Origin: an uncultured virus (IMG/VR IMGVR_UViG_3300020160_000566)
Taxonomy: Duplodnaviria > Heunggongvirae > Uroviricota > Caudoviricetes > Crassvirales
Length of the DNA: 20,000 bases
IMG/VR virus record: IMGVR_UViG_3300020160_000566
Strand: one strand, 5' to 3'
The position numbers were made by a program, and so were the translations under genes. The notes beneath the pieces were generated by a model. That model was not told the origin of the DNA. It ran no database searches and saw only the letters and a program-made list of their open reading frames with translations. Positions 2,534-16,657 of the stretch are shown one piece after another (the stretch's first letter is position 1; every line of letters begins with the position of its first letter).

Positions 2534-5500
2534 TTAATGCAATGGTACCCAACTGCTTCCGTTGTATACTGTTACTTTATTGTTAGTTGTGTCATACACA
2601 ATTAATCCTGTAGCAGGCGACCCTATACTGTTCATTTCTGAATTTGTCATTCTCGGAGGCAAGAAACCTTGCCTTCTTGATGACAAGTCCATTATAGATG
2701 ATGTATCAGGAGCAGTTGTTCCAACGCCTACACTACCGTTAGCAGCTATACGCATCATTTCAGATCCACCAATATTTATGGCAAATGGATTAGCAAATGA
2801 AAGATCTAAAGAAGACACTCCTGTAGAGTTTGAACTTAAAGATAAAGTCTGAGGAGCTCCAAATGATTGGCTATGTACAAGCTTCATCGTAGTAGGCACG
2901 AATGATGTACCTACAACATGAAGTTTAACATCAGGACTAGTAGTACCTATACCAACATCGCCCGACCCCATTACAGCTACTCTAGTTGATCCAGAAGTAG
3001 TTAAGTAAACAGAACTAGATCCTGCAACAGTTAATATATTAGAGCTATCTCTTCTTATAAAATTAGAAGTGTTACCGAAATACAAGTAATTATTCTCAGG
3101 CAATCTAATATCCCCAACAACATCTAGCTTATAAGCAGGAGTAGTAGTACCAATACCAACGTTGCCTGCGCTCGTGATGCGCATGCGCTCGGCATCAGCT
3201 GTTATGTCATACCAAACTAAACTCCTTGCAGAATTTATATAATTAGCCCAAATACCATTGCCTGCTGATTCTAAATATATTGATGCAATATTTGAATTTG
3301 AAACCTTTAATACTTTTTCTGTACCACTTATGAGCCCGTCGGTATAAGTTGTTCCAATTCCGACATTCCCATTTGCTGCAATACGCATTCTTTCAGTGTC
3401 ATTAGTGTAGAACTCCATTGGATATGCTCCACTACTGTAAATAACAGTTGAGTATGCAGTTCCACCGAATGATCCACCTGTAACATTATTTCTACCAAAA
3501 TAAGATGTACCACCTGCGTTTTGAGCTAAGTAAGCAGCTCCATTAGTATTAGTTGATGAGGTTAACTTAATACCACCTACTGCTCCACCTGTTGTATTTA
3601 CATGTAATGTAGAATCAGGATTAGTAGTACCAATACCAACAAGCCCTGAATTCTTAATAACAGCTTGATCGCTATTAGCCATTCTAAAGTAAATATCATT
3701 ACCTGAAGGCCTGTTGATATATAAGTGGTTGTCGTTTGGTGAACTTAATAAGTTATAAGAACCTGTATTTAAAGTACCATTTAATGATAATCCTGTATAA
3801 TTAGATCCAAAACCTGCAGACCCCATTAAAGCAGCACCTGACCCATCTCCGACTACTGTAAGTTTAGCAGCAGGACTTGAAGTACCAATACCTACAAAAC
3901 CTGCTGAAGTAATGCGAACTTGCTCAGTATAGCTATTTCCACCATTTCTCTGACCAATAACAAAATCTCCACCAACTGAAGCTGTGCTATTGTTAAATCC
4001 AATATACCCAATAGCATTACTTCCATTTAAAGAAACAAATCTTAAACTTGAAAATCCTCCGCCTCCTGTATTTTGAATTAAAATATTTGCGCCTCCATCA
4101 GGTTGAATTAATGAAACTGAAGATGCAACATAAGAGGTTGTATTGCTTTCAGCTATATGTAATTTTTGTCCAGGACTAGCAGTACCAATACCTACGTTAT
4201 TATTTGAGCTAATAAAAAATTGAGTTGTTCCAGTAAGAGAGTAACCATTTCTAGATATGAAAAAACTATCATTTGATCCAGTTCCTATTTCAAACCATGC
4301 TCCACTTGATACACCTCCACTACGGCCCATTCTTAAAGCAGCCGCGTTTGCAATAGAATTCCAAACAATATGAGGATTAGCTATCATAATGCCTGTTGCC
4401 CCGCCAGCTCCAATTGTAACAAATGGCGTAGATCCATCTCCCCATAGTGTAGTGTTAGTCACAACAAACTTATCCCATCCACTTGTCCCCCCTGTAAAAA
4501 CTTCTAGCTTTCCATTTGGTGCAGTTGTACCAATACCTACGTTGCCATTTTCTGTAATTGTCATTCTAACTGCGGCATCGACAGCATAGTTATGAGTTAC
4601 AAAATTTAACCTTTGACTATAATTTCCACCAACTGTAGTAGACTCAATAGACATACCTGCAATAAACTGATTTGCAAAAGTATTGTTAGCATAACCAATA
4701 TAACGGGTACCTGCATTTGTGTAATTTCCTAAACGTATATTGCCGTTAACATCTAAAACTTCATATGGATTAGTAGTACCTATACCTACGTTGCCGCCGC
4801 TAGTGATACGCATACGTTCTGCCCCTGCAGTTAAATCATACCAAACTAAACTTCTTGCTGTGTTTAAATAATTAGCAATAGATCCTCCTGCTGACTCAAG
4901 ATATATTGATGAGATATTACTACTAGATATCTTTAAAATTGTCTCAGTACCACTTATAGCATTGGCTACACTAGTAGTTCCTATACCAACGTTGCCTGCG
5001 CTCGTGATACGCATACGCTCAGAAGAGTTAGCAAAAAACTTTACAGGACCACCTGTTGCAAAAACACTTGCACTATTATCTGACCCATCTCCAAAAAATA
5101 ATGCTGTATTTCTTGAATTTATATTACCATCTACTGTTAATTTATCACCCGGAGTAGTTGTACCGATACCAACGTTGCCAGCAGCAGTAATGCGCATGCG
5201 CTCGGAGCTATTAGTATTAAATAATATGCTTTCGGCTCCCTTAGATGCTAAACTTAAAGCTACACTAGGATTAGTACCCCCCATTTGTATACCACCATAC
5301 CACAACTCAACTGATTGTGAAAGATTTTCAGCATAAAACCCAGCAAAAGTCGTTACATCGTTATTAGGGCTGACTACTACAAATCGTTTAGACGGACTAG
5401 TAGTGCCTATACCTAATCTACCACTCGCATCTAACGTCATAGCTTGTGTAAAGCTGATAGCGTTACCTGCCGTTCCTGAAGGAGCGGTAAACCAAGCGTG

Positions 5501-8500
5501 TATTCCAGCATCACTTGCGTTTATTTCATATCGTGCAGCAAAACTTGAATTAACATATTTCCAACCTGTTTGATAGAAAGCATTAGAGTTTACATATCCT
5601 GTATTACTATATCCTCCTAAACTTGTTGAGCCAACTTGAAATGCAGTTACAGTATTCCACGCACTCGGTGTTACTCCTAATCCTAAATTGCCACTAACCT
5701 CTTGTAGTGCGCTATTCCCAATTGCACTTGAGCTTGTAAATTTAGGAACGTAGTTCGTAGTTCCCGTTCCAGTAACCGGATTGGTTATAACTGACTGATA
5801 CTGAGGTATGTTTAGAATACCTGTAGAGCTGTTATATGTAGCCGCACCACTTGTGCCTGTTGTTGTCAAGCTGATAGCAGCTCTTGCTCTAGCGTCAGTG
5901 AAGTATAGATTAGTATCCTCAATGATGTCACTAGTGTACAATGTCTTTGAGCCAATACCTAAGATATGGCCAAACTCATCGAGCATGATGTTTTGAACGA
6001 CAGTGCCTATTGAGTTAAATGTACCCAATGGAGTCTCAAAATCACCAAGCTCACCTAATGATGTAGCTAGACATCTAAACGCCTCAAATGACCCCCCATC
6101 CTCAATTGATCTGTTCATTAAGTCTTGAGCACCCTGAACGTCTAACCCTTGGCCTATGCCGTGAGATATTGTGATGTTGCCTGATGATGTAATAGGGCCG
6201 TCCTCAGAGACGATTCTAGGGCCTGCAGTTACGCCAATGCTTGTAACTGTACCAACACTCCATGATCTGTCAGCAGAGAGGTCGTATGACGTACCATTTA
6301 TTGTTAACTGACGGCTTGTCGGAACATATCCGCTTAATGCTGATGAGTAGTTTGGTATATTTAAAGTACTGCCAATAAGCGTAGCCGCTCCACTTGATCC
6401 TGTAGTGGTAAGTGTAATTGCGTTCTGCTTATTGTTGAATGTATTCCAGTCAGTTGAACTTAAGAACCCGTTTGTTGACGCTCCTGCTTGACTAATTGAA
6501 AAAGTCTTTGTAGCACCATTAAAGCTCAAAGGAGCCGTAGTGTTTAACTGAGTGTATGCTAAATTACTTCCGTTAAAAAACACAAAGTCATTTGTAGTGG
6601 CAGCACCCGCAATTAAATTTGCTGTAACAGTACCTGTATTCTGCTGAGTAAGTACAATGCTTGTTGCGGCAACGCCATAGTTTACAGCAGCAGACACTAT
6701 TGAGCGGTTGTAGGCAGTTGTCCAGTTAGACTGATTGGCTGTTGTTGGTATTGAATAACCTGATTGAAGACCTAACGCAAACGTACCTGATCCTGTTATT
6801 GGAGAACCTGCAACTGTTAACCCTGTAGGCACAGTCATCGCAATGTTAGTTACAGTACCAACGCTCCAAGATCTATCTGCACTTAAGTCATATGCAGTAC
6901 CGTTAATAGTTAACTGCCTAGTAGTCGGAACAGGCGTATAACCTAATGCTGTATCAATACTCTTATTCTTCCAAAGCTGTGTAGCTGTCTCATAGAATAA
7001 GCCCTGATTGTTTAAAGGATTGTTGATGTAAACATTATGAAGCTCATCAAGCTCCCATCCGTTCATAATCTTCACATATATCTTACCGTGATTAGCATGA
7101 GCGTACTCAACGTAACCCATTACGACAATGTGTCCTGTAGACCCATTTGGCTTGACATTTGTCAGGCCACCCGGAATGGTAGGACTTAAATACAATACGT
7201 TGCCATCTACCCACGTCTCACCTTGCAATGACCCGGTTGTATTGATATCCTCAAGGTGACCAACAGTAATAATAAACCCTTCTTGGTTTGTAGCAATAGT
7301 CTCTGTAACCAAACCAATGGTGTCAGCACTATTAGCATCGCTGTCAGCCTGAGCGTATGCTACAGCTAATCGTTGGCCTTGAGCACCACTTACCCTAACA
7401 GCAGCATACCCTGCCTTTGTAAGCGTTGTATTTGGACTGACCTTGTTGACCACTCTAGCCACCAAGTCAACACCGTTCTTTAGTATAACGCTACCGCCTT
7501 TTAATGTGGTTTCACTAGATCCAATTGTGTTGTTCCACCTAGTTGTACCTACAACAGCAGTGCCCGTAGGTGATACGTCAAGTGTCAACTGACCTGCAGT
7601 CAACCCAAACTCACCTAAGTTTACATTTTGTGTAGCACCAATATAAGGAACATAACCACCCAATGCTGTTGAGTAGTTAGGTATATTTAGCACACCTGTA
7701 GTATTGTCATATGTTGACAAACCACCTGTGCCTAATGTTGTCAAGCTTATTGACTGACGAGCACGTAAATTTGTAAAATAAAGATTGGTTACTCCCTCAG
7801 GAATGTTGTCACTTGTCAAGCTAACAGCACCGGTCTGTCCATTGACAGATGTAACCGAGTCAGTGTTGTCAACCTGTTGCCATGCCGTGCCATCGAATAT
7901 AGCCCAGTCGCCTACGTTCCAGTCAGTGATGCCGTCAAGGTTAGTACTACCTGCCACGTTGACAATGTAGTAGTAACCACGAGTACCAACACCGCTAGTT
8001 AAGGCAGGTGTATTTGTCAAAGCGTTCCATGTACCTTGGTAGATTGAACTACCTATCAACCCATTGATTTGATTCTGCAACTTACCGAATGCAGTAAGAA
8101 TGCTGTCAGAGGCATTTATAGAGCCTCCAGTGACATTTACGCCTGTTAAGACCTTAGCGGTCACCGAGGCGTTATTAAGTGTCACAGAAGCCGTCCCTGG
8201 CCCCGATCCTGTAGCCTCACCACTTAGCGCAGTGATATAGTTGCCTGCAGGTTGCTTACTATTGAAAGTATTCCAATCAGTAAAGCTTAAGAAGCCACTA
8301 GTGCTAATGTTTGCCTGTGGTATTGTGATATTAGGTGTAGTACCACCTGATGAGCTCAACGGAGCTGATGCAGTGACTGCTGTCACAGTTCCAACATTCC
8401 AAGTCCTATTAGCGCTTAGATCATATGTTGTGCCATTGATTGTTAGCGTCCTGCTATTTGGTACATAACCACTCAAAGCTGTTGAGTAGTTAGGAATGTT

Positions 8501-8653
8501 TAGGACATTATTTATAAAAGTAGAAGGCCCTGAAGAGCCTAATGTTGTAAGTGCGATTTTATTTTGAAATATGGACTTTACATTTCCATACTTATCAGTT
8601 ACAACAAGCTCTCTATTATTAGAGCCAAGACCATACTTATTTATTTTCTCCAT
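2534..8653 (-). CDS. Long tail fibre / receptor-binding protein with tandem G(N/x)VGIGTT repeats
   Basis: 2039 aa, rich in G/T/S/N. The N-half has repeated modules (LTINGTxYDLSAxRxWxVGTVT x3, GFLSxTDWNTFNxKQ x2). The C-half has about 13 xRIxxxGNVGIGTTxP units and ends in GFLPPRMT...PATGLIVYDTT...YNGSSW. Confidence 0.85.
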   Translation of the reverse strand: MEKINKYGLGSNNRELVVTDKYGNVKSIFQNKIALTTLGSSGPSTFINNVLNIPNYSTALSGYVPNSRTLTINGTTYDLSANRTWNVGTVTAVTASAPLSSSGGTTPNITIPQANISTSGFLSFTDWNTFNSKQPAGNYITALSGEATGSGPGTASVTLNNASVTAKVLTGVNVTGGSINASDSILTAFGKLQNQINGLIGSSIYQGTWNALTNTPALTSGVGTRGYYYIVNVAGSTNLDGITDWNVGDWAIFDGTAWQQVDNTDSVTSVNGQTGAVSLTSDNIPEGVTNLYFTNLRARQSISLTTLGTGGLSTYDNTTGVLNIPNYSTALGGYVPYIGATQNVNLGEFGLTAGQLTLDVSPTGTAVVGTTRWNNTIGSSETTLKGGSVILKNGVDLVARVVNKVSPNTTLTKAGYAAVRVSGAQGQRLAVAYAQADSDANSADTIGLVTETIATNQEGFIITVGHLEDINTTGSLQGETWVDGNVLYLSPTIPGGLTNVKPNGSTGHIVVMGYVEYAHANHGKIYVKIMNGWELDELHNVYINNPLNNQGLFYETATQLWKNKSIDTALGYTPVPTTRQLTINGTAYDLSADRSWSVGTVTNIAMTVPTGLTVAGSPITGSGTFALGLQSGYSIPTTANQSNWTTAYNRSIVSAAVNYGVAATSIVLTQQNTGTVTANLIAGAATTNDFVFFNGSNLAYTQLNTTAPLSFNGATKTFSISQAGASTNGFLSSTDWNTFNNKQNAITLTTTGSSGAATLIGSTLNIPNYSSALSGYVPTSRQLTINGTSYDLSADRSWSVGTVTSIGVTAGPRIVSEDGPITSSGNITISHGIGQGLDVQGAQDLMNRSIEDGGSFEAFRCLATSLGELGDFETPLGTFNSIGTVVQNIMLDEFGHILGIGSKTLYTSDIIEDTNLYFTDARARAAISLTTTGTSGAATYNSSTGILNIPQYQSVITNPVTGTGTTNYVPKFTSSSAIGNSALQEVSGNLGLGVTPSAWNTVTAFQVGSTSLGGYSNTGYVNSNAFYQTGWKYVNSSFAARYEINASDAGIHAWFTAPSGTAGNAISFTQAMTLDASGRLGIGTTSPSKRFVVVSPNNDVTTFAGFYAENLSQSVELWYGGIQMGGTNPSVALSLASKGAESILFNTNSSERMRITAAGNVGIGTTTPGDKLTVDGNINSRNTALFFGDGSDNSASVFATGGPVKFFANSSERMRITSAGNVGIGTTSVANAISGTETILKISSSNISSIYLESAGGSIANYLNTARSLVWYDLTAGAERMRITSGGNVGIGTTNPYEVLDVNGNIRLGNYTNAGTRYIGYANNTFANQFIAGMSIESTTVGGNYSQRLNFVTHNYAVDAAVRMTITENGNVGIGTTAPNGKLEVFTGGTSGWDKFVVTNTTLWGDGSTPFVTIGAGGATGIMIANPHIVWNSIANAAALRMGRSGGVSSGAWFEIGTGSNDSFFISRNGYSLTGTTQFFISSNNNVGIGTASPGQKLHIAESNTTSYVASSVSLIQPDGGANILIQNTGGGGFSSLRFVSLNGSNAIGYIGFNNSTASVGGDFVIGQRNGGNSYTEQVRITSAGFVGIGTSSPAAKLTVVGDGSGAALMGSAGFGSNYTGLSLNGTLNTGSYNLLSSPNDNHLYINRPSGNDIYFRMANSDQAVIKNSGLVGIGTTNPDSTLHVNTTGGAVGGIKLTSSTNTNGAAYLAQNAGGTSYFGRNNVTGGSFGGTAYSTVIYSSGAYPMEFYTNDTERMRIAANGNVGIGTTYTDGLISGTEKVLKVSNSNIASIYLESAGNGIWANYINSARSLVWYDITADAERMRITSAGNVGIGTTTPAYKLDVVGDIRLPENNYLYFGNTSNFIRRDSSNILTVAGSSSVYLTTSGSTRVAVMGSGDVGIGTTSPDVKLHVVGTSFVPTTMKLVHSQSFGAPQTLSLSSNSTGVSSLDLSFANPFAINIGGSEMMRIAANGSVGVGTTAPDTSSIMDLSSRRQGFLPPRMTNSEMNSIGSPATGLIVYDTTNNKVTVYNGSSWVPLH
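3153..5205 (-). repeat. Dispersed ~38-bp DNA repeats encoding ERMRITSAGNVGI linkers
   Basis: 3153-3190 and 4983-5020 are identical at 36/38 nt; further diverged copies at about 4782-4819 and 5166-5205. Confidence 0.8.
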
Positions 8654-8938
8654 TTACTCTATATTAAGAGTATAAAAAGTATTAGCTACAGATGATCTAG
8701 CCAATATTTTATCTCCTTGTGCTAGTTCGTATTTTAAATTATCAGTTACAACATCTCCTGCGTCAAGTATTAGCGTATACAAATCTACTGTTCTGTCTTC
8801 TTTTGCGACATACAAAAAAACTTCTAACGTGTAGCTAATGTCATTTGTAAATCGCATACTCAAGACATCATTACCTATCTTATCAACACAAGTAAAGATA
8901 CTTGCTGTTACAGTAGTTACCGATCCGCTTTTAGTCAT
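8654..8938 (-). CDS. Small hypothetical protein upstream of the tail fibre (likely structural/assembly)
   Basis: 94 aa with beta-strand-like patterning; abuts the fibre start and has a TAATG overlap with the upstream gene. Confidence 0.65.
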   Translation of the reverse strand: MTKSGSVTTVTASIFTCVDKIGNDVLSMRFTNDISYTLEVFLYVAKEDRTVDLYTLILDAGDVVTDNLKYELAQGDKILARSSVANTFYTLNIE

Positions 8939-9294
8939 TACTCTTCAATTTGCACCATTGGCTCGTAAGGAAACTCCTCCGTAGTAGCGTGTCCAGCAAA
9001 TGCGTGTTTTGGGTTCTTTGGTTCTACTAAGTTTGCCCCAAAGTCGTATGTCTCGGAACTCATAACGTCATAGTGGTAGCCATCAGCGTAAACGGGCGGG
9101 GTTACGATTTCCATTCCATCCATTACGGGAGGGACGATCATAATTTTTCCTATATTGACTACAGCTTGCACACCTTCGCCATAAGCCAAATACACATTGC
9201 CATCAATGCCTTCTGTCTCAACAAATATTCCTTTTGACTTTAAATCGTCAAGGCCTTGTTGTTCGTTCTCATAATTAAGCTTAAAAATGTTCAT
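8938..9294 (-). CDS. Hypothetical protein; apparent chimera of a replacement 5' half and the original 3' half
   Basis: 118 aa; residues 1-50 are 30/50 identical and gap-free with the remnant ORF at 10002-10154; start overlaps the endonuclease stop (ATGA). Confidence 0.8.
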   Translation of the reverse strand: MNIFKLNYENEQQGLDDLKSKGIFVETEGIDGNVYLAYGEGVQAVVNIGKIMIVPPVMDGMEIVTPPVYADGYHYDVMSSETYDFGANLVEPKNPKHAFAGHATTEEFPYEPMVQIEE

Positions 9295-10004
9295 ATCCTT
9301 ATAAAATTTAATCCTTTACTTTTTCCATTAGCAATAGGTCTCTCATGATTACTATTACCATTTACTGTTCTATAACTAGCATTAAATATTTCAGGGGTCT
9401 CCCACATATAGCATTCAATACCTGTTGTAAGCTCTCGAACCTTCATGGATGATTCTCTCCAAGCTTCTTTTTGTCTTTGCCTAGTTATTTCACTTATTTG
9501 TATTCCTCTTTCTTTTCTTGTTTCTGATATTTTTCTTTTAGTTTCTTCAGAATGCTTTCTGCCTGTTAAATATTCAATTAATCTTCTTTTTTGATCATCA
9601 GACATTTTCCAACCCTTATGAGATTCAGACATTTTCTTTAATGATTCAGGCGTATGCTTGCAACCTTTTCTAGGTGAAGGCCTACCCTTCATTATTTCTG
9701 AATGTCTTTTTCTATTTTCCTCCGATGGCTTATATCCAAATGCTCCTTCTCCGCCTAAAGTTATGTTACATAGATTATCAATTCCTATTGAATCAATTAA
9801 AAATTTTTCCATCTCTTTAGCTTCTTCTAGTGATATGTCTTTTGCAACAATATCAACTAATAATCCATACTTATTATAAACACGAGTCCAATATGGATTT
9901 CGTTTAGTTCTACGATATGGCCTTTTAGGATCTGTTGCTATCCCAACGTAATAAATATCACGTGTGCTTGGTTTCATATGTATGTAAACGAATGCCATTT
10001 TCTA
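9145..10004 (-). mobile_element. Putative homing cassette: stop codon + endonuclease gene + replacement 5' half of the target gene (~860 bp, boundaries approximate)
   Basis: Removing about 9145-10004 joins remnant codons 1-50 in frame to codons 51-118 of the downstream gene, giving one intact ORF. Confidence 0.72.
9291..9998 (-). CDS. Free-standing homing endonuclease, GIY-YIG-type nuclease domain plus NUMOD3 DNA-binding repeats
   Basis: N-terminal FVYIH...IYYVG...R...AKEMEKFLI...LCNITLGGEG (GIY-YIG variant with conserved R, E, N), then NUMOD3-like motifs GCKHTPESLKKMSESHKG and GRKHSEETKRKISE; more AT-rich than its flanks. Confidence 0.88.
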   Translation of the reverse strand: MAFVYIHMKPSTRDIYYVGIATDPKRPYRRTKRNPYWTRVYNKYGLLVDIVAKDISLEEAKEMEKFLIDSIGIDNLCNITLGGEGAFGYKPSEENRKRHSEIMKGRPSPRKGCKHTPESLKKMSESHKGWKMSDDQKRRLIEYLTGRKHSEETKRKISETRKERGIQISEITRQRQKEAWRESSMKVRELTTGIECYMWETPEIFNASYRTVNGNSNHERPIANGKSKGLNFIRI

Positions 10005-10154
10005 CAACCCAAGTTCGACAACTGCAGCCACTCCGTTTCCGTATGCTTCGTGTTTTTCTCCGTCAATGCCGTCAACCTCTACAAGTATGCCTTTGGCTTT
10101 AAGGTCTGCGAGTGCGGTGTCCTTGTTTTCGTATGTCAGTTTATATATGTTCAT
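10002..10154 (-). pseudogene. Truncated 50-aa 5' remnant of the gene interrupted by the endonuclease
   Basis: Not in the track. MNIYKLTYENKDTALADLKAKGILVEVDGIDGEKHEAYGNGVAAVVELGL*; TAATG overlap with the upstream gene; homologous to the N-terminus of 8938-9294. Confidence 0.85.
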
Positions 10155-11959
10155 TAGATAGTTGTTAGGGTGGCTAATTCGTCATTTGTTAGGCGGGTCT
10201 GCCAAAGGGCTGCGGCGTTAAAGTTTTGGTCTGATTGGTAAGCATTATAATAGTTACCAAAATCAATTTTATTCATTCCGCTTGGGACTGCTGAATACGC
10301 AGTTGTTGAACCAACCAAAGCCCCGTTTAAATAAAAAGCATAGTCATTGGCTTTCCAAGCTACAGCGACTTTGTGGCGGCCATTTGTAAGTGTTGAAGAA
10401 GAATTACTCCATCCCGTAAATGAAGGAGTATTCCAAATTGCGGCTTCTAACGTATTGTTAGTTACATACAAATAAACGGAATTATTAAAAGCAGCACTTC
10501 CCGTATTGTTTAACGAAAGTAGAATAGTGAAATTTGCGTCAAAGTTTACATAAGCATCAACAAACAAAGTCCCCTCCGTTTGACCGATAAGCGAACTAAT
10601 ACCCGTCTTTGATATTACGTCAGCGTTGCGTGTTACACTTGCAGAGGTTGTTGGTATGTAGGATGTTTGATAATTTCCGAGTTCAATTTGAGCGCCCCAT
10701 ATAAGAAGGTCTTTGCCAGTTCCAGAATAGATTGGAAAATTGTTGTTAAGTAAAGCACCAGTAAATTGTGGTCTGTCACTTGTACCAATTATAGGGAAAT
10801 AATTAGCAGTACCGCTTGTCATAGTTCCAGTAACTGAACAACGATACCACCCATTGCCAACATTTTCTATTGATGCACTAATTGTTGCAGCGCCATTTGT
10901 TTTTGTATCTGTTACTGTTCCAGTTTGCAAATCAAATATAGCAGTATATGCATGAACATCACTGCTATTTGTTACACCTAAAACTAAATATCTTAATGTG
11001 TTTTGTTTGGCATAAGTTGAAAAAGCTCTTGATATAGCAAGGTCTCCGCTAAACGATTGATATATGATGTGTCTTGATAAATTTGAATCATCCGTAATTG
11101 TGTCAGCATCAAATATTCCACTTGGGGATGTTGATATATTACCAATTGAAGTTGCGTTTTCTTTTGCCCACCCCGCGTTATCAAAAGACGAACTATAAGT
11201 AAGTAGGTTTGTCCTTTGCGGTTCTACTAACAAACTTGGACAAGTACCGTTTGAGTAGTCAAGACGTGGTATGTTAAGTCTTGTTTCCGTTTTTTGGTAG
11301 GGTAGTGCGGTTGAGCCTTCGACTGCTTGAGCGCCCCAAATTAATAGTCCATTTGAGCCACTTGCAGTTGCATTTGTTGAATTGTTTGCGTCTGCTAATT
11401 GAGTAACATTGTAACCCGTAGAGCCATTTACTACTTTAGTTACGGAGCAACGATACCAACCATTTCCATAATTTTCAATAGTTGCAGTACAACCCGAAGT
11501 AATAGTTCCTATTGTACCATTTGAAACATTAAACCAAGCACCTACATTTCCGTCTATATGGTGGAGAATAACCCAATTAAACCCGTCTGATTTTACAAAA
11601 CAAGTATTTGTGTAAGCTATCCCCACAGTTGTAGGAAAAGCTCTTTCAACCCATTTGGATATTCCCGTAGATATAGGAGTTATTTTATCTGCGTCTTGAA
11701 TACCACTTGGCGAAATTGAATTATTTGCAGTTATTGTTGTTCCGCTTTTACTCCAATAAGCATTGTCAAACTGCTCTGAATACCCTACAAGGTTATAAGG
11801 CACTAACTCAACCAACCCCGCAGAGTTAACTCTTGTTGCTGTTGTTGCTCTTGTTACGGACATATCGCCCGAACCATCGGACGGAATAACGGAGTAAAGT
11901 TTGCCCTCAGAATACGCATTTGGCGTAACGCAAAGACTAGCCTGTGATAATAGACTCAT
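10154..11959 (-). CDS. Head-spike-fibre-like protein with two carbohydrate-binding-like repeats and a C-terminal LamG/ConA-like domain
   Basis: Motifs TRATTATRVNSAGLVE, PRLDY...LLVEPQRTNLL, SYIPTTSASVTRNAD; duplicated unit NL..YS..FDNA.W...SPSG..DAD.I...IEN.GNGWYRCSVT...LLIWGAQ; C-terminal HKVAVAW...FYLNG...LTNDELATLT. Confidence 0.72.
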   Translation of the reverse strand: MSLLSQASLCVTPNAYSEGKLYSVIPSDGSGDMSVTRATTATRVNSAGLVELVPYNLVGYSEQFDNAYWSKSGTTITANNSISPSGIQDADKITPISTGISKWVERAFPTTVGIAYTNTCFVKSDGFNWVILHHIDGNVGAWFNVSNGTIGTITSGCTATIENYGNGWYRCSVTKVVNGSTGYNVTQLADANNSTNATASGSNGLLIWGAQAVEGSTALPYQKTETRLNIPRLDYSNGTCPSLLVEPQRTNLLTYSSSFDNAGWAKENATSIGNISTSPSGIFDADTITDDSNLSRHIIYQSFSGDLAISRAFSTYAKQNTLRYLVLGVTNSSDVHAYTAIFDLQTGTVTDTKTNGAATISASIENVGNGWYRCSVTGTMTSGTANYFPIIGTSDRPQFTGALLNNNFPIYSGTGKDLLIWGAQIELGNYQTSYIPTTSASVTRNADVISKTGISSLIGQTEGTLFVDAYVNFDANFTILLSLNNTGSAAFNNSVYLYVTNNTLEAAIWNTPSFTGWSNSSSTLTNGRHKVAVAWKANDYAFYLNGALVGSTTAYSAVPSGMNKIDFGNYYNAYQSDQNFNAAALWQTRLTNDELATLTTI

Positions 11960-14818: not shown

Positions 14819-15041
14819 TGGTGTACGGCTTGTCCTTGATCACCATCGTGTAGGAGTGCCCCTTGTCGTAGTAAATCTCGTCACCTGACTTGATAGCCGC
14901 CACCTCAGTGCCCGCCACCACGACCTTGCCAATCTTGTAGCGAAAGTCATTGGCGTCATGTGCGCTCAATAGGAGGCCTGACTCAGTCTTGACCTCCTTT
15001 TCAATTGTCTCAATTATGATATTCTTCCCGATTGCGATCAT
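14784..15041 (-). CDS. groES: Co-chaperonin GroES (Cpn10)
   Basis: Mobile loop EVKTESGLLLS, GKVVVAG..V..IKSGDEIYY, Y.IIHERDVVVV; coupled to groEL by an ATGA overlap. Confidence 0.88.
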   Translation of the reverse strand: MIAIGKNIIIETIEKEVKTESGLLLSAHDANDFRYKIGKVVVAGTEVAAIKSGDEIYYDKGHSYTMVIKDKPYTIIHERDVVVVV

Positions 15042-16657
15042 TGTGCTTGGTATGTTCGCGCCATTGTGATAATGGCGTCAGTTGATAAAATTGTCGTAGC
15101 CACACTCACAGCGTTCTGTAGCGCGCTTCTTGTCACCTTGAACGGGTCAATGACACCCATCTGCAATAGGTCACCGTAGCTATTTGTCTTCAAGTTGTAC
15201 CCATACCCATCAGCGAAATGGCCATCACCAAACTGATAGATGTCCTCAAACTTAAGGCCGGCATTCTCAAGAATTTGCTTCACAGGTGTCATCAACGCCC
15301 TGCTCATGATCTCAAACGCAATATGAAGCTCAGCACTGTCAGCCTGCATGCCATTGAACGCAATAGACTCTTCAAGTAGTGCCTTGCCACCACCCGGTAG
15401 CACACCCTCCTCCAAGGCAGAGCGAACTGCACACACAGCATCATCGACCCTGTCGTACAACTCCTTCTGCTCAATGTCAGTAGTACCACCTACGAAGATG
15501 ACACCAACGCCCCCTGTGAGTGATGCAATGCGCGACAGAATAAAGTCCTTCTCATGCTTCTTTGTCGCCTCACCATGCGCAGCCCATAGCTGCTCCACAC
15601 GCTGAGCCAATGCCTCCTCGTCAGTGCGCAACGGTGAGTTGATGATCACAGTGTTCTGCGAGTCCACAATAATTTTGGCAGCATGACCAAGGTCAGCATA
15701 CGTCATCAGACTCAAGTCATCACCTGTCTTCTCACTAAAATACTTGGCACCCACCGCTAGGGCAATGTCACCCATCAGCTCATGCTTCTTGTATCCAAAG
15801 TTAGGCGGCTCAATAGCACACAACTTGAGGTTGCTTTTGGCTACGTTCGCTGCTAATGTGTTGACCACTTGTGGCGCACATGGCGCAATGATTAATAGGC
15901 GTTTGCCATCTTTAATAATTGGCCTGAGAATATTCTCCAACTGCAAAATATTATGGATCTCAGCGTCACACACCAAGACCATCGCATCCTCGAACACACA
16001 CTCATCACGCTTGTGGTCGTTGATGAAGTACGGTGAGTAATACCCACGCTGTACCTTGAAGCCATGAGTGCTCTCAGCATATGTCTCATTAGTCTGCGAC
16101 TTCTCAACGGTCACAATACCGTTCGTGCCAATCTCATTATAAACTCGTGATATGATTCCACCAATGTGCTTGTCATTGTTCGCAGATATTGTCGCCACGT
16201 CATTGAGCATCTTCTTGGTGACCTTCTTCTTCTTCTTCTTTAAACTCTCCACGACCTCATCAGATATCTCCACCATGTGGCGTAGCACTTGTATGCGGTT
16301 CAAGTCAGCCGTAATGAGATCATCACCCGCCTTGACCAAGGCCTCCGTCAGCACAATGGCAGTAGTCGTGCCATCACCCGCGTTCGTAGCAGTCTTGTCA
16401 GCAGCCTCCTTCATCATCCTCACAGCCAAGTTCTCAACCGGATCAATCAAGTCAACAGACTTCGCGACAGTCACACCATCCTTCGTTACTGTAATACCAC
16501 TCGTATGATTCGCTGACTCGATCAGCACAGTGTTGCCCCTTGGGCCTAAAGTGCTCTTGACAGCACCTGCGATTTTTGTGATTCCACTAATGAGCCTCGC
16601 TCGCCCATCATCCCCGAAACGTATGTCCTTCGGAGAGTAACCTAAGTTCTCAGTCAT
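15038..16657 (-). CDS. groEL: Chaperonin GroEL (Cpn60), phage-encoded
   Basis: AVKSTLGPRG, ITVTKDGVTVAK, AGDGTTTA, ATISANND, EEGVLPGGG, GVIDPFKVTRSALQNAVSVA motifs. Confidence 0.97.
   Translation of the reverse strand: MTENLGYSPKDIRFGDDGRARLISGITKIAGAVKSTLGPRGNTVLIESANHTSGITVTKDGVTVAKSVDLIDPVENLAVRMMKEAADKTATNAGDGTTTAIVLTEALVKAGDDLITADLNRIQVLRHMVEISDEVVESLKKKKKKVTKKMLNDVATISANNDKHIGGIISRVYNEIGTNGIVTVEKSQTNETYAESTHGFKVQRGYYSPYFINDHKRDECVFEDAMVLVCDAEIHNILQLENILRPIIKDGKRLLIIAPCAPQVVNTLAANVAKSNLKLCAIEPPNFGYKKHELMGDIALAVGAKYFSEKTGDDLSLMTYADLGHAAKIIVDSQNTVIINSPLRTDEEALAQRVEQLWAAHGEATKKHEKDFILSRIASLTGGVGVIFVGGTTDIEQKELYDRVDDAVCAVRSALEEGVLPGGGKALLEESIAFNGMQADSAELHIAFEIMSRALMTPVKQILENAGLKFEDIYQFGDGHFADGYGYNLKTNSYGDLLQMGVIDPFKVTRSALQNAVSVATTILSTDAIITMARTYQAQ

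Follow-up and report, generated by a model that had tools for sequence, protein, structure and literature searches.

A probable mobile homing-endonuclease cassette that carries a foreign copy of the first 50 codons of the phage gene it interrupts

How can an endonuclease gene lie inside a protein-coding gene of a phage and leave that gene whole, if there is neither an intron nor an intein to remove it? This question is raised by a stretch of DNA of 20,000 nucleotides (nt) from an uncultured virus of the Crassvirales (IMG/VR record IMGVR_UViG_3300020160_000566), which we call the window in its full length and to which all position numbers refer unless a related locus is named. In the window, a homing endonuclease gene is found between two copies of the first 50 codons of a gene of 118 codons (g118), immediately downstream of the gene of a tail protein of 601 amino acids (aa; g601). 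To our knowledge, homing endonuclease genes have been thought to persist in essential coding sequences only by means of self-splicing introns or inteins or, rarely, in split genes that remain functional. The comparison with related loci makes it very probable that the window holds a mobile homing-endonuclease cassette between native codons 50 and 51 of g118, which carries foreign codons 1-50 of a divergent version of this gene (K-type from here on) and which has the history proposed below. Because the cassette lies exactly between these two codons, the downstream open reading frame (ORF) is a full-length hybrid of foreign codons 1-50 and native codons 51-118, and native codons 1-50 are left as a stub, the remnant. 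The features of the locus are the following:

8938..9144, minus strand: native 3' part of g118, codons 51-118 and stop, contiguous with the remnant in empty alleles
8938..9294, minus strand: intact hybrid g118, 118 aa (PHROG 36706, E 6.5e-14, full length)
9145..9294, minus strand: replacement (K-type) codons 1-50 of g118, placed in the K-type clade of the N-half tree
9145..10004, minus strand: putative cassette, 860 nt, made of stop and spacer, endonuclease gene and replacement codons 1-50, with boundaries that abut in empty alleles
9291..9998, minus strand: free-standing homing endonuclease gene, 235 aa, with a GIY-YIG-like N-terminal part and NUMOD3 repeats, named from family matches
9999..10004, minus strand: left junction, TAG AAA adjoining the ATG of the nuclease gene, in frame with the remnant, by direct reading
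10002..10154, minus strand: remnant, native g118 codons 1-50 and a TAG stop, an intact ORF by direct reading
10154..11959, minus strand: g601, tail protein gene, 601 aa (PHROG 5939 'tail protein', E 1.8e-67)

The genes are tightly packed: the ATG of g118 overlaps the TGA stop of the nuclease gene (ATGA), and the ATG of the remnant overlaps the TAA stop of g601. The place of insertion can be read from relatives in which g118 is uninterrupted. With blastn, positions 10151..10005 of the window matched 3610..3756 of the related locus L017 and positions from 9144 onward matched L017 from 3757 onward, which are adjacent bases, and the same adjacency was found in L014 (between 4144 and 4145). As the end of the remnant and codon 51 adjoin in the uninterrupted genes, the insert is exactly 860 nt long (10004..9145) and lies between codons 50 and 51, which makes precise the original prediction, drawn from the sequence of the window alone, of an insert of ~860 bp at about codon 50. 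When the window was compared with L002, another occupied locus, the identity was 63.2% in the last 300 nt of g601, 81.6% in the remnant, 98.3% in the nuclease gene (696/708), complete in replacement codons 1-50 (150/150) and 81.7% in the 3' half. Judged by this pattern, the cassette is a discrete mobile unit.

We collected relatives from viral contigs with g118, the K-type relative P0019 and the nuclease as queries, together with pattern scans. Among the 124 loci found, 117 had a near full-length g118, and 85 remained as distinct after removing those with the same DNA (identical 430-nt key); L028 (partial), L029 (a pattern match on the minus strand) and L120-L124 (distant nuclease-only loci) were dropped before the count. 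The empty alleles that had been predicted do exist, as g601 is directly followed by a single g118 in 65 of the 85 loci (including L066, which was checked by hand), and none of these 65 nuclease-free loci has both the short and the long ORF. Nuclease, remnant and g118 occur together in six loci (L001, L002, L003, L033, L037 and L118; L034 is an identical copy of the L002 region), and one more (L032) has the nuclease and is cut off upstream. In five loci (L036, L035, L014, L017 and L070; L015 is an identical copy of the L014 region) a nuclease gene lies between g601 and g118 without any remnant, so that the intergenic position holds for them and not for the window, where the nuclease is inside g118. 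A different, classical GIY-YIG gene occupies the g601/g118 gap in three loci (L011, L086 and L112), and the last five are too short upstream.

The K-type start and the endonuclease genes are closely associated in this survey. An endonuclease gene is directly upstream of g118 in 10 of 10 K-type loci (nine with the window-type nuclease, called type A here, and L035 with that of L014) versus 6 of the 75 native-type loci, in line with the expectation that the replacement half would group with nuclease-bearing loci. In the case of L036, a window-type nuclease (235 aa, 82% aa identity) lies between g601 and a K-type g118, and there is no remnant. An exact 29-mer of the K-type start was present in only three loci of the viral contigs, all already known, and a degenerate pattern of this start recovered three more loci from metagenome contigs, all of them with a nuclease upstream.

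The same architecture was found in public sequencing runs, of which 21 were listed, 20 with at least part of the stretch, and contigs of four (X3, X4, X9 and X12), from four other studies, were compared with the window. A 1309-nt contig of X12 corresponds to 8956..10118 with 33 differences and reaches from the 3' half through the cassette into the remnant, a 975-nt contig of X9 (9100..10059) runs across the left junction, an 817-nt contig of X4 covers 9073..9889, and a 916-nt contig of X3 covers 9076..9991 with zero differences. In these four runs, 8700-8927 and 10182-10400 were without cover and hence uninformative. A separate 149-nt contig of X3 joins 10030 to 9133 across 36 other letters, the length of codons 43-54, which are in-frame native-type sequence by hand translation. 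The X3 sample thus holds both the occupied form and an uninterrupted g118 allele.

Separate phylogenies of the two parts of g118 were built from codon-aligned DNA (IQ-TREE 'quick', with the Shimodaira-Hasegawa-like approximate likelihood ratio test, SH-aLRT, as support), and the members of the K-type group were fixed by their 5' halves before we looked at the 3' tree. The N-half tree covered codons 3-48 (141 columns and 91 rows, namely 10 K-type, 6 remnant and 75 native) and the C-half tree 204 columns and 85 rows; L106, counted as too short upstream among the 85 loci, was left out of the trees, its match beginning at the locus edge. The 10 K-type 5' halves (window, L001, L002, L003, L032, L033, L035, L036, L037 and L118) form one clade with SH-aLRT 100 on a branch of 0.69 substitutions per site, and the six remnants fall at no fewer than five (at least five) separate places among the 75 native rows. 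These 10 rows do not stay together in the C-half tree but are spread over the native alleles: the window goes with L005/L006 (SH-aLRT 97), L002/L032 with L010/L016, and L035/L036 with L042. In the approximately unbiased (AU) test of the C-half, monophyly of the 10 K-type rows was rejected (p=3.8e-5, delta lnL 195), and so was that of the six window-type rows (p=0.028). The two halves of g118 are therefore incongruent rather than congruent, with a break at codon 50-52, as had been anticipated. The further expectation that remnant and 3' half would group with the same empty allele was borne out for L002, in which both go with L010, and failed for the window, in which they go with different native alleles. 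Altogether, the view that the remnant and the 3' half were the original gene, into which a nuclease and a foreign 5' half had been inserted, is largely supported by these data, and it is its account of the origin that we refine below.

The two copies of codons 1-50 in the window are very different from each other. The remnant ORF proposed at 10002-10154 is present, ends after 50 aa and is followed by TAG-AAA and the nuclease. On recount, the remnant and the replacement half align without gaps with exactly 30 of 50 identical residues, 20 of which use different codons, as had been claimed; their nucleotide identity is 86/150, dN (non-synonymous divergence) is 0.37 and the synonymous sites (dS) are saturated. 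The reported codon preferences were also recovered, with NAC:NAT ratios of 10:1 in the remnant, 3:8 in the replacement half, 11:3 in the 3' half and 4:32 in the nuclease gene (remnant vs replacement half, Fisher p=0.0075), and GC content at third codon positions is 0.46 in the remnant, 0.32 in the replacement 5' half, 0.50 in the 3' half, 0.19 in the nuclease gene and ~0.27 in the neighbouring genes. The remnant is 74-94% identical in aa to the N-halves of empty alleles versus 60% to the window's own replacement half. Remnants are at dS 0.15-0.6 from their nearest native alleles with dN/dS of 0.03-0.24 (~0.2 for that of the window; the native versus native median is 0.145). The K-type halves fall into three or more deep sub-lineages (those of the window, of P0019/L036 and of L118) with dS>1 and dN/dS of 0.06-0.17. 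Among the 120 homologues listed, 18 have a 5' half with 44-50 of 50 residues identical to that of the window and 3' halves with only 48-61 of 64-68, and the other 102 resemble the remnant more than those 18 do (27-46 of 47-50 residues identical) and share 23-37 of 47-50 residues with the replacement half.

The original prediction had described the replacement half as recoded. The divergence behind that word is real, but recoding overstates it: the dN of 0.37, the saturated synonymous sites and the deep, constrained sub-lineages indicate an old functional allele class, divergent at the protein level and under purifying selection, that travels with the nuclease and was not freshly recoded. Deliberate recoding was rejected as a separate claim, since the 20 of 29 shared non-Met residues with different codons are about what saturation would give (~18, by our own estimate).

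With respect to the nuclease, the product of 9291..9998 matches PHROG 314 'homing endonuclease' (E 2.6e-23) and, in two stretches, Pfam NUMOD3 (E 4.8e-8, 33.2 bits against a cut-off of 20.4), which gives it a DNA-binding module of the I-TevI/Seg type. Residues 36-168 also match TIGR01453 'group I intron endonuclease', an I-TevI-type family, with E 1.2e-12 and 48.4 bits, below the cut-off of 56.05, and no PDB sequence was matched at E<=10; for these reasons we name the protein GIY-YIG-like/NUMOD3, with a catalytic assignment that falls short of proven. By our own reading only, the N-terminal sequence is motif-like for GIY-YIG. The ORF is intact in 8 of 8 type-A copies examined, with dN/dS of 0.05-0.33, and exists in two forms of 235 aa and 198 aa, the shorter of which lacks a 37-aa segment bearing NUMOD3. 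The nuclease genes are also mosaic: the window and L001 share ~75% nt identity in the 5' 440 nt and 92.7% from 9572 into g118 (region 9707-9572 of the nuclease gene; loci L001 and L003).

The left edge of the cassette varies among loci. In the remnant-free forms, the nuclease ATG comes one base after the g601 stop (TTA TAA G/T ATG GCA). In the window, L002 and L034, the remnant is followed by TAG AAA ATG GCA, and the six bases before the nuclease ATG of the window align by blastn with the stop and spacer of the intergenic junction of L017, so that the stop codon at the left edge of the cassette looks like the stop and spacer that precede the nuclease in the intergenic forms. A second junction, in L001, L003, L033 and L037, is 10 nt shorter, and the GTG or ATG of the nuclease overlaps the end of the remnant (GWQ and stop). 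A third one, in L118, follows a 34-codon remnant of a short native subtype with TAA T ATG. The remnants belong to different native subtypes. Among database proteins of remnant length, P0122, P0128 and P0130 end in ELGL and P0132 in ELGWQ, and P0127 and P0129, which end in VVEI, may represent a fourth junction form. Three other entries (P0124, P0125 and P0126, one of them named 'ribosomal protein L20' by its source) have a native g118 start to about codon 52 and then unrelated out-of-frame sequence; they may be further disruptions at the same site, or sequencing errors.

The interrupted gene belongs to PHROG 36706, where its function is unknown, and 669 homologues of 64-207 aa were found in a large protein collection, with no Pfam or NCBIfam match. 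An AlphaFold2 (AF2) model of g118 from a 35-sequence alignment (pLDDT, the predicted local confidence, 74.6) shows a small fold that is rich in beta-strands and has a single helix; a Foldseek search gave no PDB match for it at E<=0.001 and, in BFVD, only uncharacterised phage proteins. Codon 50 was considered as a domain boundary and this was dropped, as a predicted beta-strand of residues 42-54 spans it. The most conserved DNA stretch of the native 5' half is codons 33-41 (about 10058-10032), in which the majority fraction at third positions is 0.71-0.95 among the 75 native alleles. It is also where the K-type differs most, with 11 of 27 bases matching the native consensus in a hand count. 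Codons 33-41 are a possible recognition region of the nuclease, or may reflect some other overlapping constraint.

How could a cassette of this kind have come to lie inside its own target? The history that we propose would begin with a free-standing endonuclease originally at home in the gap between g601 and g118, as in L036. This enzyme would have cut nuclease-free g118 genes near codon 50, at a distance of ~150 nt from its own gene on the downstream side, and the tract from the nuclease gene to the cut, which is codons 1-50, would always have been co-converted and would have become a separate, presumably uncleavable lineage. Constant co-copying of this kind would account for the linkage of the K-type 5' half to a nuclease, for its deep divergence and for its sharp end at codon 50-52; in fact, none of the 10 loci has K-type codons 1-50 without a nuclease, and codon 50-52 is where the tract ends, as expected of co-conversion of flanking markers. 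Site-specific cleavage of nuclease-free alleles and biased inheritance would agree, indirectly, with the presence/absence polymorphism and with near-identical cassettes in diverged backgrounds. When the left end of the break met no homologous sequence, it would have been joined illegitimately to the donor, a short way before the start of the nuclease gene, instead of being resected to homology, and the 5' half of the recipient would have survived as the remnant. The left end would have found no homology because the last 300 nt of g601 are only 57-68% identical between occupied loci, while g118 is conserved; g601 as a whole is highly divergent among related phages, with 35-48% aa identity to its homologues in related loci. 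One-sided homing and illegitimate repair at microhomologies are documented for intron homing in phage T4 (PMC2988022).

From then on, the cassette would be flanked by conserved g118 sequence (the remnant on the left and the 3' half on the right) and would be able to move as a unit between diverged phages. The carried copy would keep the gene whole without splicing, would interrupt the native insertion point and would be too unlike the remnant to recombine out. The longest exact run common to remnant and replacement half is at most 8 nt in 6 of 6 occupied loci, compared with 59 nt between the remnant of the window and native L016, so that the nuclease is expected to be lost only rarely through recombination of one copy with the other. 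From these features we infer that the insertion would be neutral, that the cleavage site would be lost and that the element would resist deletion, as the original prediction had proposed.

It is conceivable, although we consider it improbable, that the remnant-bearing form is the older one, that the element entered codon 50 directly by an unknown route, and that L036 and L035 derive from such a form by deletion or by recombination with other intergenic nucleases. The numbers speak for it, as seven type-A loci have a remnant and only one (L036) lacks it, and so do L035, evidence that the nuclease upstream of a K-type gene can be replaced by one of another type, and the mosaic nuclease genes (window vs L001, ~75% towards the 5' end versus 92.7% towards the 3' end). 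However, the six nt before the nuclease ATG of the window and the TAA-T-ATG of L118 resemble an intergenic junction, which is expected if they were copied from an intergenic donor, three left junctions are explained more easily by repeated illegitimate joins than by one ancient insertion, and the K-type 5' half must once have come from a complete K-type gene. A second possibility, to which we give an equally small chance, is that the remnant is a retained, translated small gene that couples translation of the nuclease to g601 or yields a separate N-terminal fragment that has its own function. All six remnants read from DNA are open from an ATG overlapping the g601 stop, that of L118 with its 34 codons is open too, their dN/dS of 0.03-0.24 against the nearest natives resembles the native-native median of 0.145, and the remnant stop of the window is in frame, 3 nt before the nuclease ATG. 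Nevertheless, a low dN/dS is expected anyway because most of the differences predate the insertion, the different native subtypes suggest repeated fresh capture, the remnant ends vary (ELGL, ELGWQ, VVEI and the 34-aa form), the database entries P0131 and P0133 look frameshifted or truncated, and the intergenic forms do without a remnant.

Two further explanations have, in our opinion, almost no probability. The presence of two gap-free homologous copies on both sides of the nuclease would be accounted for by an in-place tandem duplication of the 5' half, followed by divergence of the copies and a later landing of the nuclease between them, but synonymous sites are saturated between the copies while the remnant is at dS ~0.2 from natives of other phages, the K-type copy is identical in L002 (150/150) despite flanks of 63-82%, and the duplication is found in 0 of 65 empty loci. 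No more credible is a group I intron, an intein or an assembly chimera. The best NCBIfam match of the nuclease is indeed named 'group I intron endonuclease', but, as had been noted before, there is no room for an intron core: 708 of the 860 nt are nuclease ORF and 150 are g118 codons, 2 of the 860 lie outside the ORFs and the stop/spacer, and an Rfam search of 8600..10400 returned no family at E<=1. The nuclease has its own start and stop, unlike an intein (no separate search for intein motifs was made), and a chimera is contradicted by the presence of the same architecture in independent contigs of several collections and runs.

We thus favour the mobile cassette that carries a foreign gene start, although a number of observations count against it. 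The cut near codon 50 is a position that we infer only from the junctions and from where the K-type tract ends, the lack of a remnant in L036 could be a loss instead of the original state, and the K-type locus L035 carries a different nuclease type, so that the linkage between K-type and nuclease is not strictly one to one. In the window itself, the nearest native alleles of the remnant (L016/L052/L092) are not those of the 3' half (L005/L006). No more than 1-4 nt are common to the left junctions and their presumed partners, and microhomology is for this reason not demonstrable at them. The predicted strand of residues 42-54 (AF2) crosses the junction at codon 50, and since the junction is inside a predicted strand and not at a domain boundary, the compatibility of foreign and native halves is assumed. 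There is no Pfam GIY-YIG match at E<=0.1, and the catalytic domain reaches no curated GIY-YIG threshold. Finally, all the sequences are metagenomic, the trees rest on 141 and 204 columns and on a 'quick' method, and the joint in X3 has 24 letters on its shorter side, fewer than the 30 advised.

As for the surroundings of the locus, the following feature lies downstream:

2534..8938, minus strand: an ORF of 94 aa and the gene of a tail fibre of 2039 aa (PHROGs 18345 and 9942, both tail fibre)

Together with g601, these genes belong to a phage tail module, and the downstream region is 92-95% identical in nt to L004 (empty) and to L017 (with a different intergenic nuclease). A scan of 8500..10500 for promoters and terminators gave a site count below that of shuffled sequences. 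A phage GroEL-like chaperonin of 539 aa is encoded at 15038-16657 (minus strand; PHROG 5725, E 3e-135, full length). The isolate phage genomes had no DNA match to 8000..11000, and among isolate phages only the Nonlabens phages P12024L/S matched at the protein level, with 38-39% aa identity to g118, and isolates therefore offered no context. The only match in the collection of prokaryote genomes was L125, a 4,003-nt contig in a Crocinitomicaceae metagenome-assembled genome, with the same match coordinates as L018. Its binning, together with the weak similarity to Nonlabens phages, is a weak hint at Flavobacteriales hosts, and L125 itself may come from a phage and have been binned wrongly.

In the relatives, endonuclease genes have a hotspot in the g601/g118 gap, with two further kinds besides that of the window. 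One is a classical GIY-YIG gene of 193-194 aa (L011:786-1370, TIGR01453 E 1e-22; L086:1645-2226; L112:2411-2992). The other encodes 198-229 aa with 34-43% aa identity to the window nuclease (L014:3287-3970, L017:2886-3569, L070:2396-2992, L035:2303-2986) and matches its N-terminal part (73-76% nt, in L017 and L014) and not its C-terminal part. Both kinds occur with native-type g118 and no remnant. The upstream gene is itself variable: g601 is patchily mosaic between phages, with short blocks of 70-96% nt identity and the rest unalignable, and some relatives have tandem diverged g601 copies upstream of g118 (L004:46-3542, L017:6-2881, L024:548-3996).

We found no phage report of such an element in the full-text literature, a search whose coverage excludes most subscription journals, and several known systems resemble it in part. 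In Aeromonas phage Aeh1, the free-standing endonuclease gene mobE lies in nrdA, a case of 'genes in pieces' (PMC10448857), and there too the endonuclease gene interrupts a coding sequence whose function is kept without splicing. However, nrdA stays split and two peptides assemble, whereas the downstream ORF of the window is full length and the upstream piece redundant. In the 'fractured genes' of environmental sequences, a homing endonuclease gene lies between the two halves of a split intein (PMC2677866) and thus also between two parts of one gene; those halves do not overlap and are joined by protein splicing in trans, whereas both pieces of the window contain codons 1-50 and its nuclease has its own start and stop. 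The Seg endonucleases of intron-less homing are, like the nuclease described here, free-standing phage enzymes of the same broad family, with presence/absence polymorphism and co-copied flanking DNA, and the intergenic L036, L014 and L017 fit this type. Seg genes lie between genes, however, and the passages on Seg available to us do not contain a stable intragenic insertion with a carried duplicate of a gene start. Some integrating phages and islands carry a replacement for the end of their target gene, as in the case of tRNA genes or of icd with phage 21 and e14. They also bring a substitute for a displaced gene part, but they depend on an integrase and an attachment site, replace the 3' end and involve no endonuclease-driven gene conversion.

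The closest parallel is found in fungal mitochondria. There, mobile endonuclease ORFs ('mORFs') form hybrid genes in Allomyces macrogynus (atp6) and in Glomus sp. (atp6, atp9, cox2 and nad3): an endonuclease ORF within the gene brings a foreign C-terminal part, and the native C-terminus stays downstream (PMC3630166). As far as that description goes, the likeness is extensive, as in both cases an endonuclease ORF lies inside a protein-coding gene without intron or intein (between codons 50 and 51 in the window), a foreign and divergent duplicate completes the reading frame while the native part persists next to it as a remnant, the foreign and the native sequences take different positions in trees, and the DNA identity of the duplicates is low (63.5% in Glomus atp6, PMC3630166, vs 57% in the window). 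The order of the parts is different, namely core, foreign C-terminus, mORF and native C*-terminus in those genes, and native 5' remnant, nuclease, foreign 5' half and core in the window. Moreover, the present element is in a phage and not in a mitochondrion, its nuclease is set off from the remnant by a TAG and not fused in phase and, in contrast to what is described for mORFs, empty alleles, intergenic forms and several junction variants are available from natural populations.

A further route to persistence in coding sequence, in which the element supplies a spare copy of the displaced gene part and which has so far been described mainly for fungal mitochondria (from Allomyces atp6 on), would therefore exist in phage too. 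The comparative set is unusually complete, with empty alleles, intergenic forms, three junctions and cassettes of 98-100% identity in backgrounds of 63-82%, and the steps from intergenic to intragenic can for that reason be followed in natural sequences and put to experimental test. Such cassettes would also complicate phage annotation and gene phylogenies by creating chimeric genes and short orphan ORFs, and they would mark exact recombination boundaries inside tail-module genes. On a bolder reading, which we regard as possible but hold to be more doubtful than the cassette itself, the loci would form a natural series from a free-standing homing endonuclease to a gene-internal element without intron or intein, in which the nuclease and a cleavage-resistant 5' half have co-evolved through a synonymous divergence of more than one substitution per site, this unit has repeatedly been put into its target by one-sided repair (at least three junction types), and the remnant serves as a conserved left homology arm between phages whose upstream host-range gene is too diverged to recombine. 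If this were true, such elements would drive mosaicism at the level of domains in phage tail modules, and endonuclease genes in coding sequences would have a third general solution, that of carrying a spare piece of the target, common to phages and mitochondria.

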